This document shows, one piece after another, positions 4,619-8,715 of a stretch of 34,655 nt of DNA. Positions within the stretch are counted from its first letter, which is position 1. Each line of letters begins with the position of its first letter. A program made the position numbers and the translations under genes. The notes below the pieces were generated by a model. That model was given only the letters and a program-made list of their open reading frames with translations. It was not told the DNA's origin and did not search any database. This DNA is from a virus (lineage: Duplodnaviria > Heunggongvirae > Uroviricota > Caudoviricetes): IMG/VR virus record IMGVR_UViG_2531839666_000023; one strand, 5' to 3'.

Positions 4619-5173
4619 ATGAGACTTACACCAATGGGAATACCGGGCAAAGCCCCGGCACATGTGAAGGCGTGGACACAGCAGGAAGATCGGTTACTCA
4701 TCTCACTTTATCAGGAACACAACACACATCAGCTCGCCGAACGAATTCAGCGAACCCGTAAAGCAGTTATGTACCGGATTCGTTTTTTACGTAATCGTGG
4801 GCTGATTGGCCGCAAGAGAAAAGCACCACTGAGTACAGAAGCCATAGCCTTTCTTATTAAAAACCGTCATGTAAAAACCGCACAGGAAATGGCTCTGGAA
4901 GTGGGATGCAGTGAGTGCACAGTGAGGTACACACTGCGTAAACGGGGTTACAACCTGAAAAAATGCGGTGAGAACCACCATTGCGCCAGATACAGCGATC
5001 ATCTGGTTGAGCTGGTCACGGAGCTACGCGACATACACAACATGACGTTCTGCATGATCGCTGAACACATCAACAGCACGATACAGATGCACATTAACGA
5101 CGATGCGGCGTTTCATCTCTACCACCGCCGCACCGCGGCTGACGCCGTGCTCTGTGAACTGTTACCGGGCTGA
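4619..5173 (+). CDS. Hypothetical early protein (184 aa), possibly DNA-binding
   Basis: Basic helical N-terminal region (WTQQEDRLLISLYQEH...RIRFLRNRGLIGRKRK) suggestive of a DNA-binding fold; assignment is inference only. Confidence 0.4.
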   Translation: MRLTPMGIPGKAPAHVKAWTQQEDRLLISLYQEHNTHQLAERIQRTRKAVMYRIRFLRNRGLIGRKRKAPLSTEAIAFLIKNRHVKTAQEMALEVGCSECTVRYTLRKRGYNLKKCGENHHCARYSDHLVELVTELRDIHNMTFCMIAEHINSTIQMHINDDAAFHLYHRRTAADAVLCELLPG

Positions 5174-5293
5174 GTGATCATCATGCACACACAAAAAACC
5201 GCTTGCCAGCGCTCGTCGTGTCGGGTTACATTTCCGCTGCACCTCATAAAACGGGTGCCGGGATTGCAACCCCCGCCGACTATGCACGCGCAC

Positions 5294-5314
5294 AACCGCG
5301 CCAGCGGTTTTTTT
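5294..5314 (+). terminator. Rho-independent terminator-like hairpin
   Basis: Stem AACCGC, loop GCCA, stem GCGGTT, followed by a 7-T run on the + strand. Confidence 0.45.
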
Positions 5315-5492
5315 GTGCGTACTGTATCGCCACGTCTTTTTCGCATCGAAATTATGGCGGGGCGTACGGGGCCGACTTCGGTCGGGCCGGGTTCGTGCGT
5401 AGCCGGTGGTTGCAACCCTGTACGTCTCGCCACCCAGAATTGCAACCTCTGGATGGTGAGTTTTCAAAACTTACTACGTACGAGGCCACACC

Positions 5493-5720
5493 ATGGCAAA
5501 CCGCAAACAACAGCGCGCCCGCGCTGAGCGTCTTCACATCCGCACTGAAATCAACCGCAGGCTCTGGCGCGCATCACGCGTCGCGCAAATCATGTACATC
5601 AACATGCTGCATGAACACGCACACGCGCTGTCAGACCGTTACTGTGCCGCCGTCTTCAGCTACCTGGCGGATGACCTGGCAGAGCTGCAGGACCTTATCA
5701 ACCAGCAACACCACCACTAA
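5493..5720 (+). CDS. Hypothetical protein (75 aa)
   Basis: ORF following the repeat/hairpin-rich non-coding stretch; basic N-terminus. Confidence 0.35.
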   Translation: MANRKQQRARAERLHIRTEINRRLWRASRVAQIMYINMLHEHAHALSDRYCAAVFSYLADDLAELQDLINQQHHH

Positions 5721-5788
5721 ACAACATCCTGAAGCCATCCCGCACCCGTACGCGGGAGGCTTCCGTACGTCTGTTACCGGAGGTTCTC

Positions 5789-6199
5789 ATGAAGAGCGTT
5801 AAGGGACTTTCAGATATTCAGGATTTTTTTAACTGGATGTGGGCAGTGGATCCCCGGCTGGCTTCCCGCCTGAACGACTGGCACGACTATTACCGCCGCG
5901 CCTGTAAACAGGCCGCCAGACACGTCACCACATACGGGGATTTCTCCTTCACCGTTGACGACCGTTACCGCGTGGACGTGAAAGGTGATGGTTTTGGTTT
6001 ATTTCACATCAACGGAACCGACAGCACCGCCATCAGTTGGTCGTCGTCAGAGATGACGCTTGTTCTGGAAATGACAAACCACAGCGTGGCCGTGAAAGGT
6101 ATATACACCGCAGAAGACTTTATCGGTGAATACCAGCGCCTTCTCGTGCTGTACCGCGCGGCGTTTCAGGCGGCGACTGCCGGGGAGTGCGACGCATGA
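5789..6199 (+). CDS. Hypothetical protein (136 aa) upstream of replication gene
   Basis: ORF whose 3' end overlaps the start of the replication initiator gene. Confidence 0.45.
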   Translation: MKSVKGLSDIQDFFNWMWAVDPRLASRLNDWHDYYRRACKQAARHVTTYGDFSFTVDDRYRVDVKGDGFGLFHINGTDSTAISWSSSEMTLVLEMTNHSVAVKGIYTAEDFIGEYQRLLVLYRAAFQAATAGECDA

Positions 6200-8715
6200 G
6201 CGACCATAATGCACAACTGGCGTACCCGTGGAACGCCCCGCTACCGGTTATCGATCCTGAAACGTTCGGCAGAGCGCAGCCAACCGCATTACGCCAGGCC
6301 ATTCAGAGCTACATCAACGAGGATATTCGCACTGACGCCAGACTGGATGAAGAAACCGTCGCCTTCCTGACAACCACAGACGAAGGGAAGCGAATTAATT
6401 CGCATCTTTACCACGACGAAGAGCGTCGGATCAGGCTGGAAAAACTGGCGCGGCACAAACACGAGAATCCGCCAACACTGGTATCTGAAGCCATGGCAGA
6501 GCTGCGCGCCCTGCCGCCGTTTCTTGCCGGTCCGCTCATCCGTGACCTGGCGCGCCTGAGCCGCAAACAGGAGAGCGCACGCCGGGAAGGGCTTAAGAAT
6601 AACAGCGCATATGCGGCGGATAACTTCGTTCGTCACGGGCTGCGTGCCCGCCTGAAACGTATCGCCCGTGTGAATGAACGCTTTGCCACCCCGGCCTTTA
6701 AGGCCACCGCCGCGCGCGAACGGCTGGATGAACTGCTTATGCTGCCACAGCTGAGCCGTGACGAAATCCAGCGCCTTGCCACCCTGACCGCCACCGCGTT
6801 TTCCACCGCACTGGAGCGCGCATGTGATGAAGTCATCGAAAAGACCGGCAGGGGTGACGATGACCTGCTCACCTGGTTACTGACCTACCAGCCACTGGCA
6901 CACATGGCGTTAAAACTGGGTATCACGCCACCCTGCTGGCCGTCGCTGGAAATCAGGCCCGACCGCCGCACCGACCCCGACCCGGAACGGGTGCCGGGTG
7001 CGGTCATGCGCCTTTCCTGTGCGACATGGTGGAACAGTCAGTTAAGACACCTCCGGGACATCTGGCGTGAAGAACTGTTACGCGCCGCAGGTCTGGTGTC
7101 ACGTAAGACATCGGTATATATCAGCCATGAAGCGTTACTGGACTGGCGCGAAAAACGCCAGCGCACCCGCGATTTTCTGAAGGCCTGGGACATCGAGAAC
7201 GAAGAGGGAGAACGGTTCAGCCTTGAGGATATCTACTGGGCAGGTCTCTCTAATCCGCGTAACCGCCGTAACGAGATGATGACCTGCGCCCGGGGAATGG
7301 AGCAGGTCGCCGAAGCACGCGGCGACGTGGCGTTTTTCGTCACCGTCACAGCCCCTTCCCGTTTTCACAGCGTGAACGATGACGGCAGCCTGAACCCGAA
7401 ATACTGCGGAGCAACGGTACGCGATGCCAGTGATTATCTGGTTTACCGCTTTTTCGCCGCCGTCCGCAGGGCCATCGACAAGGCCGGGCTGGGCTGGTAC
7501 GGCGTGCGCACCGTGGAGCCCCACCACGACGGTACACCGCACTGGCACATGCTGGTATTCACCAGCCAGGAAAACGAAGCCCGTATCACTGAAATCATGC
7601 GCAACGCCGCCATCAGGGAGGACCGCGCAGAGCTGGGTGATGATATCTCCCCGCGTTTTAAATGCAAAAAAATCGACCCGGCAAAAGGCACACCGACAAG
7701 CTATATCGCGACCTATATCGGTAAGAACCTGGACGCCAGCACCTTCATGGGGAATGACCCGAAAACCGGCAAACCTTACGTCGATAAGGAATCAGGCAAA
7801 ACCATGGCCGAAACCGTGGAGAACGCCATCGGCTGGGCAGGCCTTCACCGCATCCACCAGTTCCAGTTCTTCGGTATCCCTCCCCGCCAGGTATGGCGCG
7901 AACTCCGCCGTCTTGCCGGGCAAATGGCCCGTAACCCGGCTGCCCCGCAGCGTCTGGACCATGACGACATTGACGCCATACTGGCCGCCGCCGACGTGGG
8001 ATGTTTTGCCACCTATATCACCCGCCAGGGTGGTGTGCTCATTCCCCGCAACACGTACCTGGTCCGCACCGCATACGAAACTGCCGAAGAGGCCAACGAC
8101 TACGGCGAATTCCCGCAACGCATTTACGGCGTCCGCGCCCCGTCACTCGGGGAGCGCTACACCATATGCACCCACCCGGACACCTGGAAACTGGTCAGAC
8201 GTAAGCCGGAAAACGAAGACCGCACGGACGAGGGTTTTGACGTTGAGTGCGGCTTTGCCGCACCTTGGACTCGTGGCAATAACTGTCCCCCTGACCAGAA
8301 TCTGACCATAAACGCCCCGCCAGAAAGGCAGCCGGACGGACGCAGGGAGCAGCGACTTACCCTGCCGGAAGGTGATTTGGGTGAATGGTTAAGGTCACTG
8401 ACACCCACAGAGCGAAAACAACTCACCAGGCAGCTGAAAAACCCGCCACCTGACACGGAAACCGTGAAAAACGGCGGCATCAGTGCGCCCGCTGGCGGCG
8501 TTCGCGTGAGTGTCGCTCTGACCGCTGAGCCACACATCACCGCACAAATCACCCGCGAGCTTGATGCGCTGGGCGTACAACTGCATGAAAGCGCCGTCGT
8601 TTCCGTCCGTCACGGTGCCCGCGTGCGCCTGGCTGACGGACGCACCGCGTACTGGAATGACAGCACCCGCCGCATTGATATCACCCCCGCACCGAATACG
8701 GAGGCGCCACAATGA
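6187..8715 (+). CDS. Rolling-circle replication initiator/endonuclease, P2 gpA-like (HUH)
   Basis: 842 aa; HUH motif in TPHWHMLVF (around 7537-7560) and YxxxY catalytic-tyrosine motif in SYIATYIGK (around 7699-7725). Confidence 0.85.
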   Translation: MRRMSDHNAQLAYPWNAPLPVIDPETFGRAQPTALRQAIQSYINEDIRTDARLDEETVAFLTTTDEGKRINSHLYHDEERRIRLEKLARHKHENPPTLVSEAMAELRALPPFLAGPLIRDLARLSRKQESARREGLKNNSAYAADNFVRHGLRARLKRIARVNERFATPAFKATAARERLDELLMLPQLSRDEIQRLATLTATAFSTALERACDEVIEKTGRGDDDLLTWLLTYQPLAHMALKLGITPPCWPSLEIRPDRRTDPDPERVPGAVMRLSCATWWNSQLRHLRDIWREELLRAAGLVSRKTSVYISHEALLDWREKRQRTRDFLKAWDIENEEGERFSLEDIYWAGLSNPRNRRNEMMTCARGMEQVAEARGDVAFFVTVTAPSRFHSVNDDGSLNPKYCGATVRDASDYLVYRFFAAVRRAIDKAGLGWYGVRTVEPHHDGTPHWHMLVFTSQENEARITEIMRNAAIREDRAELGDDISPRFKCKKIDPAKGTPTSYIATYIGKNLDASTFMGNDPKTGKPYVDKESGKTMAETVENAIGWAGLHRIHQFQFFGIPPRQVWRELRRLAGQMARNPAAPQRLDHDDIDAILAAADVGCFATYITRQGGVLIPRNTYLVRTAYETAEEANDYGEFPQRIYGVRAPSLGERYTICTHPDTWKLVRRKPENEDRTDEGFDVECGFAAPWTRGNNCPPDQNLTINAPPERQPDGRREQRLTLPEGDLGEWLRSLTPTERKQLTRQLKNPPPDTETVKNGGISAPAGGVRVSVALTAEPHITAQITRELDALGVQLHESAVVSVRHGARVRLADGRTAYWNDSTRRIDITPAPNTEAPQ

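Follow-up and report, generated by a model that had tools for sequence, protein, structure and literature searches.

The question raised by positions 5,174 to 5,492 of the DNA studied here (a single stretch of 34,655 nucleotides, referred to below as the window) is what an interval of about 320 bp, rich in repeats and hairpins, does at the head of an operon leading into a replication gene. A preliminary description made from the letters alone had proposed either a small RNA or operator sites for this operon. The interval begins immediately after the end of a 184-aa ORF at position 5173, and it holds two RNA families together with target sites matching them, all on the + strand. We propose, with a probability of roughly 80%, that it is an RNA immunity cassette of the P1/P4 type ('IsrK-C4') within the early operon of a P2-like (P88-type) prophage, in which a c4 RNA would block an epsilon-like gene and an IsrK-like RNA would counteract this block. 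This reading is supported directly by family membership, by the architecture, by four complementarities and their covariation, by the overlap of one target with a Shine-Dalgarno sequence and by the homology of the gated gene.

The window as a whole is a P2-like prophage (Peduoviridae), as indicated by its Int-C-Cox switch, its gpA and its P2-type portal and terminase. The gene order runs from an integrase, a C-like regulator, Cox, DUF4761 and DUF4754 proteins and an HTH protein to the RNA cassette, which is followed by a 75-aa ORF (5493..5720, + strand), a 136-aa ORF (5789..6199, + strand; phrog_3237), the P2-type replication endonuclease gpA (an 842-aa ORF at 6187..8715, + strand; Pfam Phage_GPA, E 3.5e-105; phrog_91), the portal and the terminase. 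The nearest phage records are P88/Xuanwuvirus, and P88 carries isrK, C4, a 'derepression protein' and gpA in the same order as the window. Identity as a P4-like satellite, an element with the alpha primase and sid/psu/delta but devoid of structural genes, was considered and rejected, the window having gpA, portal, terminase and tail genes. When related loci were inspected, gpA followed the cassette in 75 of the 75 relatives with enough downstream DNA, and P4 alpha, orf151 and orf106 were found in none of 80 loci. A search of P2 and 186, covering their early regions, found neither isrK nor C4.

Scanning of the whole window with Rfam at gathering thresholds gave exactly two matches, isrK and C4, both within 5174-5492 on the + strand, with the same outcome under permissive filters, while a tRNA/tmRNA scan of the whole window gave none. 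The small-RNA reading of the preliminary description was therefore right, except that there are two RNAs, each from a known family (isrK, RF01394, and C4, RF01695). The upstream match, to RF01394 at 5239..5314, extends over the full-length model with 56.8 bits against a gathering threshold of 50, and corresponds to the P4 seqA region and to the c4-a1b1 leader. No match in the window was obtained at E values up to 10 with RF03163, the narrower c4-a1b1 model; the same model scores 51 bits on P1 and falls just short on P4 (44.1 against a threshold of 46.7). As expected of the isrK family, a putative promoter of its own, two 5' hairpins (hairpin 1 at 5239-5258 and hairpin 2 at 5259-5274), a Rho-independent terminator and a location directly upstream of c4 were all found. 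The terminator consists of AACCGC-GCCA-GCGGTT at 5294-5309 followed by a run of seven U up to 5314; it was recovered by the terminator scan and is the same element that had been noted beforehand as a terminator-like hairpin with a T7 run. In the relatives described below, conservation extends to hairpin 1 and to the terminator, the latter being 99.7% paired. Taken alone, the IsrK sequence folds no better than its shuffles (z -0.9).

The promoter-like site obtained by promoter scan lies at 5203..5232 on the + strand, with a -35 hexamer TTGCCA (5203-5208), an 18-nt spacer and a -10 hexamer TACATT (5227-5232), matching the consensus at 9 of 12 positions. It stops 6 nt short of the 5' end of IsrK, which is also position 1 of the Rfam isrK model. 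Both hexamers are invariant in 53 relatives, unlike the spacer, in which there are 0.27 differences per site. The site occupies the position of the annotated P1c4 promoter in the GenBank record of P1, and aligns in P4 with TTGCCT/TATAGT, which we take to be PLE.

The second match, to C4 (RF01695) at 5350..5437, reaches 78.0 bits against a gathering threshold of 45 (E 8e-14) and covers the full model, positions 1-87; its counterpart in P4 is the 'CI RNA'. In this family the mature RNA, cut from a longer transcript, is about 77 nt long and represses in trans. The predicted structure comprises a 17-bp outer stem (5355-5371/5416-5432), a UUCG hairpin (5372-5385) and hairpin 2 (5386-5407), and its minimum free energy of -49.3 kcal/mol on the + strand (z -3.7) was attained by none of 200 shuffles, compared with a z of -1.1 on the - strand. 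The CCGAC-UUCG-GUCGG hairpin at 5372-5385 that had been pointed out earlier is present and corresponds to the first hairpin in the C4 model. Two patches of c4 are exposed, as expected of this family: b' (UUCGUGCGUAG, 5392..5402), in the loop of hairpin 2, which recognises b1 and b2, and a' (GGUUGCAA, 5408..5415), in a single-stranded junction, which recognises a1 and a2. Both are complementary to downstream sites, a2 and b2, that cover the ribosome-binding site of the first gene.

The targets of these patches lie on either side of c4 and on the same strand. Upstream, a1 (UUGCAACC, 5264..5271) occupies the hairpin 2 loop of IsrK and forms 8 consecutive pairs with a' at 5408-5415 (-11.4 kcal/mol), and b1 (CUAUGCACG, 5280..5288), between hairpin 2 and the terminator, forms 9 consecutive pairs with 5394-5402 in b' (-13.2 kcal/mol), one of them G·U. 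Downstream, a2 (UUGCAACC, 5440..5447) begins 3 nt past the c4 match and forms 8 pairs with a' (-11.6 kcal/mol), and b2 (CUACGUACGAG, 5474..5484) forms 9 consecutive pairs with b' within a 9-nt window, in a wider helix of 11 positions of which two are read as G·U (-15.4 kcal/mol). The two b targets are not identical in the window, yet both pair with b' by means of wobbles. The gap between a2 and b2 folds into a leader hairpin (5454..5476, + strand) whose stems are altered in relatives while the hairpin is kept (GGTGA..TCACC and GTGAGT..ACTCAC in the alignment). The Shine-Dalgarno sequence GAGG at 5482-5485, which b2 overlaps, precedes the ATG at 5493 by 7 nt. Full-length RNAduplex calculations between c4 and its flanks were uninformative because they ignore intramolecular structure, and were replaced by the patch-level analysis given here.

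The repeats that drew attention to the locus can be placed within this layout. The three + strand copies of TTGCAACC are indeed present at 5264, 5410 and 5440, and the palindrome GGTTGCAACC at 5408-5417 was confirmed, which entails an additional TTGCAACC match on the - strand at 5408. The palindrome spans a' and runs two bases into the outer stem, and only the a-type of the window has it. The count of TTGCAACC in the whole window, 4 against 2.13 expected, is by itself not significant, 4 or more being obtained in 17 of 100 shuffles. All copies are nevertheless inside 184 nt with none elsewhere in the 34.6 kb, and, as they are so confined and as their counterparts in relatives co-vary, their clustering is not due to chance. 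A second triad is formed by CTATGCACG at 5280-5288, the complement CGTGCGTAG at 5394-5402 and CTACGTACG at 5474-5482; the corresponding motif CTAYGYACG occurs at three places in the whole window, all of them b sites, with 0.71 expected. Neither this b triad nor the promoter-like site at 5203-5232 was on the list of elements drawn up in the preliminary description.

The pairing of c4 with its targets was then followed at 80 loci from IMG/VR with relatives of the 75-aa ORF, IMG/VR relatives numbering 211 in all; the 300 nt upstream of the ORF gave 53 distinct sequences, and pairs were counted on an alignment built without fitting to structure. A near-invariant scaffold runs through these 53 sequences, made up of the promoter hexamers, the stems and UUCG loop of c4, the terminator and hairpin 1 of IsrK. 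The six patches, on the other hand, are hypervariable: their pairwise differences amount to 0.356 per site, 4.5x the 0.079 of the rest of the transcript, and for the b' loop the figure is 0.37, compared with 0.08 for the scaffold. Despite this variability, the b'-b2 helix is paired in 95% of cells, with compensatory changes at 6 of 11 positions and as many as five pair types at a single position, and the a'-a2 helix in 91% (4 of 8 positions compensatory). The corresponding values are 89% and 7 of 10 positions for b1-b', 87% and 3 of 8 for a1-a', and 100% and 3 of 27 for the c4 stems. The covariation score of the c4 stems, a'-a2 and b'-b2 together was 0.30, a value reached in 0 of 500 shuffles, compared with 0.09 for shuffled data, and dropped to 0.03-0.09 when the partners were slid; with a1-a' and b1-b' replacing the downstream helices it was 0.23 against 0.075. 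The presence of G·U wobbles in the a and b helices, together with the fact that b1 and b2 are different and both pair with b', indicates pairing of RNA and on the + strand only. Folding and covariance analysis in relatives, which had been suggested as a check, accordingly found the hairpins kept and the repeats co-varying across the 53 distinct loci.

Six a' types and 15 b' types occur among the 53 relatives, in 27 combinations, and the b' type of the window is unique among them; the patches of another type read, for example, ACUGCGAA / CUUUGCUAG. Duplexes between c4 and its targets average -22.4 kcal/mol for cognate and -7.3 kcal/mol for non-cognate partners. Since the patches are ordered a1, b1, b', a', a2, b2 along the DNA, one change of specificity requires matched changes at three separate sites. 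Cognate triads are kept at nearly all loci in spite of this three-site requirement, which argues for selection for matching. The few relatives with non-cognate patches (L014, L063 and L076) look like recombinants. When modules reside together, three of the four pairs differ in type and one is identical, although these are only four pairs.

A sequence of events can be proposed on this basis. The promoter at 5203-5232 would produce a transcript starting at about 5239, and most transcripts would end at the intrinsic terminator (5294-5314) to give an IsrK-like RNA of about 76 nt carrying a1 and b1. Read-through RNA would contain c4 (5350-5437), probably excised by RNase P, which processes the c4-type RNA in P1 and P4, and the antirepressor leader. 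The c4 patches, loop b' and junction a', would pair with b2 and a2 in the leader, and c4 would in this way block translation of the antirepressor, because b2 overlaps the Shine-Dalgarno sequence. The lost translation, by Rho polarity or premature termination, would probably lower the expression of gene A as well. The IsrK-like RNA, which bears the same targets, may be a competitor or decoy for c4, or a second target in cis, and would tip the switch to expression like IsrK in Gifsy-1, the sign of its effect being uncertain since IsrK is an activator in Gifsy-1 but is needed for the establishment of immunity in P4. The production and processing of both RNAs, the direction of regulation and the inactivation of the prophage C repressor by the 75-aa protein are what we infer from the arrangement of the locus.

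Published work on related systems agrees with this scheme. In Gifsy-1, the terminator of IsrK is read through and STnc1160, of about 80 nt, is processed from the read-through RNA, while IsrK binds Hfq and acts in trans to activate translation of the antirepressor operon that lies downstream (PMC4825925). In P1/P7, c4 blocks ant translation at the ribosome-binding site and defines heteroimmunity (PMC12197685). The P4 CI RNA comes from an untranslated leader and pairs with seqA and seqC, whereby the replication genes are left unexpressed (summarised in PMC4825925), and the structural homologs of P4 seqA and CI are IsrK and C4 (PMC3632133).

The control of the downstream operon suggested in the preliminary description is therefore plausible, with the target now identified as the ribosome-binding site of the epsilon-like first ORF; control of gene A would be exerted through polarity or termination. 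It is possible, though rather doubtful, that the locus works instead in the manner of P4, where c4 would mainly terminate transcription of the early operon by pairing with a1/b1 and a2/b2 in the nascent RNA, translational control being secondary, so that gene A would be silent in the lysogen and superinfection immunity would be RNA-based. The gene order isrK-C4-epsilon-...-replication gene is shared with P4, gpA invariably comes after the cassette and an intrinsic terminator is present within the early operon at 5294-5314, all of which would suit such a mode, and the P4 CI RNA pairs with seqA/seqC and terminates transcription before the replication genes (PMC4825925, PMC3632133). However, b2 overlaps the Shine-Dalgarno sequence as in P1, whereas seqC of P4 is about 245 nt from epsilon, and the terminator scan gave no terminator-like site on the + strand in 5438-5900. 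In P1, which displays Rho-dependent polarity, the translational block itself causes termination, and a P4-like mode is for this reason compatible with the translational switch that we prefer.

The IsrK-like RNA could also be mainly a trans-acting, Hfq-dependent sRNA directed at host genes (a lysogenic-conversion 'moron'), with its proximity to c4 incidental. This we regard as improbable. The isrK family is described in Rfam as an Hfq-binding RNA and the copy in the window has its own promoter-like site and terminator, in agreement with an autonomous role, but isrK is always found beside c4 in P1, P4, P88 and the loci scanned, and its sole variable segments are two patches that co-vary with c4, which makes a purely host-directed role unlikely.

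That the repeats are DNA operators for the prophage repressor, Cox or another protein, as was first envisaged, is very improbable in view of the same alignments. Three copies of an 8-mer in 184 bp upstream of an operon, one of them inside a 10-bp palindrome, would be a reasonable arrangement for operators. Nonetheless, the palindrome exists in the a-type of the window only and the other five types are not palindromic. The repeats sit in RNA loops and junctions, with the copy within c4 inverted relative to the two direct copies, and compensatory changes in 53 relatives keep their Watson-Crick/G·U complementarity, which operators do not need. In addition, the a and b types are nearly unlinked to the type of C repressor or Cox (adjusted mutual information, AMI, of 0.06-0.17), and the P2 record places the C operators O1 and O2 at Pe beside C/cox, by analogy about 4 kb upstream of the interval. 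The preliminary interpretation, taken overall, is partly supported.

The idea that the interval codes for a small protein, either an 'ash family' or hypothetical CDS or an orf45-like leader peptide over c4, is just as hard to credit: ORFs of 101-199 aa do overlap it, a CDS is drawn over it in the P88 record and an 'ash family protein' in one RefSeq genome, and in Gifsy-1 the translation of orf45 over the equivalent region affects downstream expression (PMC4825925), but the four overlapping ORFs are without Pfam or NCBIfam match, in keeping with the earlier remark that no ORF here is convincing, conservation follows RNA stems and not codons, and the ATG-initiated ORF spanning c4 is inconsistent in relatives, varying in frame and in length from 16 to >100 aa because of indels of 1-2 nt.

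With the IsrK-C4 cassette as the preferred reading, the nature of the gated product becomes of interest. The 75-aa ORF matches Pfam PF25738 'Derepression' with 30.8 bits against a gathering threshold of 27, belongs to phrog_3688, and its close relatives are named 'derepression protein' in RefSeq. Its resemblance to P4 epsilon is remote in BLASTP (32% identity over 50 aa, E 1e-7) and is found by hhalign with 94% probability (E 9e-8), while comparisons with P1 Icd and with solved structures gave no similarity. If this protein inactivated the C repressor as a cognate partner, variants of both would be expected to occur together. Across 65 loci the AMI between epsilon and the C repressor was 0.18, compared with 0.73 for C-Cox, 0.59 for a-b and 0.43 for b-epsilon, and the AMI series decays with distance across the loci. 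Moreover, one epsilon variant was found with four different C clusters. Since epsilon variants do not track C types, a cognate pairing of antirepressor and repressor is not supported; the epsilon-like protein is either a broad-specificity antirepressor or acts on another target, and its inactivating the C repressor would be the weakest step of the scheme.

The module is widespread. The 319-bp interval was found at ≥80% identity in 1165 of 5426 complete E. coli genomes, in up to four places per genome and in 1316 places in total, mostly without annotation. The module is likewise present in P2-like prophages from Salmonella enterica and from E. albertii. A scan of species-representative genomes with an epsilon profile gave three loci, in Salmonella enterica, in E. 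albertii and in a probably misassigned 'Vagococcus' contig, a taxonomic breadth that is poorly sampled because the back-translated patterns are strict. Standard annotation leaves the interval blank or covers it with spurious CDSs. In a prophage family that is very common in E. coli and Salmonella, the module offers a concrete point, open to testing, at which induction and replication would be controlled.

In the literature searched, outside which most of the classical P1, P4 and N15 papers lie, the module was not found in P2-like helper-type phages, and neither the gating of an epsilon homolog there nor large-scale combinatorial a/b patches were found within the same scope. The mechanism is known, and its setting in a P2-like prophage upstream of an epsilon-like gene is not previously described in the literature searched. 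According to a survey of P4-like satellites, clear homologs in P2-like phages exist for a single P4-specific gene, delta (PMC8628076). On a tentative note, one may speculate that a large subgroup of P2-like helper-type prophages has a native, RNA-gated epsilon antirepressor forming a second, P1-like immunity layer over C/Cox, that the immunity-epsilon module of P4 has a common origin with a helper module, and that the six patches constitute a combinatorial RNA 'barcode' of at least 6 x 15 specificities, its triads staying matched while selection for orthogonality between prophages and satellites in one host diversifies them. If this were true, the barcode would decide which elements of a polylysogen silence or awaken one another. 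The patches could explain heteroimmunity of otherwise near-identical prophages, and the matched hypervariable sequences, being a natural library of orthogonal RNA-RNA pairs, could serve as synthetic regulators.

Among known systems, the immI region of P1/P7 is close to the window in its layout. Its GenBank record gives the order a1, b1, c4, a2, b2 and icd/ant, the same order of elements as here, and in the P1 sequence a (UUGACAG) pairs with the c4 junction and b (GUUAGUG) with the loop of c4 hairpin 2. The position of a2 is shared as well, and the P1 b2, GUUAGUGAGG, runs into the Shine-Dalgarno sequence before icd, which it covers 7 nt before the first ORF as in the window. Both also have a promoter immediately ahead of hairpin 1, a hairpin resembling a terminator downstream of b1 and a further hairpin between a2 and b2 (CAGGTT-GTTA-AACCTG in P1), and the gated product of P1/P7 is an antirepressor, as proposed here. 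Differences in patch sequence between P1 and P7 define the specificity of immunity (PMC12197685). In contrast to P1/P7, however, the first ORF of the window is epsilon-like and not Icd, there is no Ant homolog, the phage belongs to the Peduoviridae, and the diversity of specificities, 6 x 15 types, goes beyond the two classical types.

Similar genes are present in some lambdoid prophages, where IsrK-C4-like sequences have been recorded (PMC3632133). The isrK-orf45 (STnc1160)-anrP region of Gifsy-1, a Salmonella prophage, has an IsrK with a leaky terminator and a processed RNA of about 80 nt complementary to IsrK, and its antirepressor gene is controlled at the level of translation, as is proposed for the window (PMC4825925). 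The region between is read there as orf45 with translational coupling (PMC4825925), whereas no consistent ORF spans c4 here. Gifsy-1 also differs in being lambdoid and in having an AnrP unrelated to the antirepressor of the window. In the phage-plasmid N15, a small processed c4-like RNA reportedly controls the antirepressor gene, as Ravin et al. are said to have described in 1999. The anti-immunity system of N15 has been cited as structurally similar (PMC3632133), the phage type and the antirepressor proteins being different.

The name 'IsrK-C4 immunity system' was given to that of P4, similar RNA systems being those of P1, P7 and N15 (PMC3632133). In P4 (PLE-seqA-CI RNA/seqB-seqC...epsilon-orf151-alpha), isrK and C4 matches are found directly upstream of epsilon in the order and orientation of the window, the replication gene is further downstream in the same operon, and the gene gated here is the homolog of epsilon. 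The a'/b' patches of P4-like satellites are hypervariable, as they are in the relatives of the window. No pairing was predicted in either direction between the CI patches of P4-like satellites and the targets of P88-like modules; a single weak a'-a' match (-7.8 kcal/mol), likely due to chance, was the exception. The host element of the window differs from P4 in being a complete P2-like phage and not a satellite, its replication gene is gpA and not the alpha primase, DNA identity between the two is low, and the target overlaps the epsilon Shine-Dalgarno sequence 56 nt after c4, whereas epsilon of P4 starts about 245 nt after CI. Through a common RNA-plus-epsilon module, the cassette connects helper phages with P4-like satellites.

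The DNA of the IsrK-like (5239-5314) and c4-type (5350-5437) RNA genes is unannotated in most RefSeq genomes. It is overlain by a CDS on the minus strand of P88, among the closest phage records (SF19_gp13, 'hypothetical protein', 5033-5221 of locus L001), and by an 'ash family protein' CDS in one E. coli genome (RefSeq match H17), both of which are probably spurious calls across the RNA genes. Directly upstream of the promoter-IsrK-c4 cassette lies a 184-aa ORF (4619-5173) displaying weak Myb/HTH matches and corresponding to phrog_323 (D5-like transcriptional regulator). Because this ORF was found in only 24 of the 80 related loci, the position adjoining the 5' side of the cassette is one of variable gene cargo. 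On the integrase side, the sRNA STnc130 (RF02084) was located both in the prophage of E. coli strain Bongo (L002, NZ_CM153263.1; 660-794), where it is flanked by dmsA and the integrase gene, the latter about 75 nt away, and in an E. albertii prophage (L087, 1481-1615), suggesting that related prophages share an integration site adjoining the STnc130 gene.

The same Bongo prophage carries a tandem pair of full promoter-IsrK-c4-epsilon cassettes (L002 6020-7160). Their c4 recognition patches differ in specificity, with AGTTCCAA (a') and CGTGCGTAG (b') in one cassette versus ACTGCGAA (a') and CTTTGCTAG (b') in the other, and their two epsilon copies are 88% identical.

In the window, the UUGCAA core of the a-type patches is self-complementary in a' (within the palindrome at 5408-5417), in its IsrK partner a1 (5264-5271) and in its partner a2, 3' of c4 (5440-5447), so that, judging from base complementarity, a' of one c4 molecule could bind a' of another and a1 could bind a2. 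This palindromic a-type is restricted to 5 of the 53 distinct upstream sequences among the relatives. Non-cognate patches were observed in three IMG/VR relatives (alignment A1, columns 74-98 and 207-228): in L014 both a1 and b1 are mismatched to its own c4, in L063 the mismatch is at a1, and in L076 b' is mismatched to both b1 and b2. These three loci look like recombinants, and their switch would be expected to be altered or broken.

The epsilon-like proteins encoded by the window (5493-5720) and its relatives are mosaic, with conserved N- and C-terminal thirds and several distinct versions of residues ~24-50 (e.g. WRASRVAQIMYINMLHEHAHALSDRY versus TRAAHIAFIMQSNTLHRLNSTISADY), a variable stretch which may represent a specificity region. 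A protein 75% identical to that of the window was also observed in a record labelled Vagococcus sp., a Gram-positive (L086, NZ_JBQPOM010000071.1), most likely reflecting contamination or misassigned enterobacterial DNA.

In the ~300 nt upstream of epsilon in P4-like satellites (L167-L246), a' falls into 4 types and b' into 8, with 13 combinations represented, and no cross-pairing of these patches with those of the P2-like set was predicted. The epsilon proteins accompanying such diverse patches are 97-100% identical to P4 epsilon. Since satellites with a near-P4 epsilon vary as well, patch hypervariability is general in the IsrK-C4 family and extends beyond the P2-like set.
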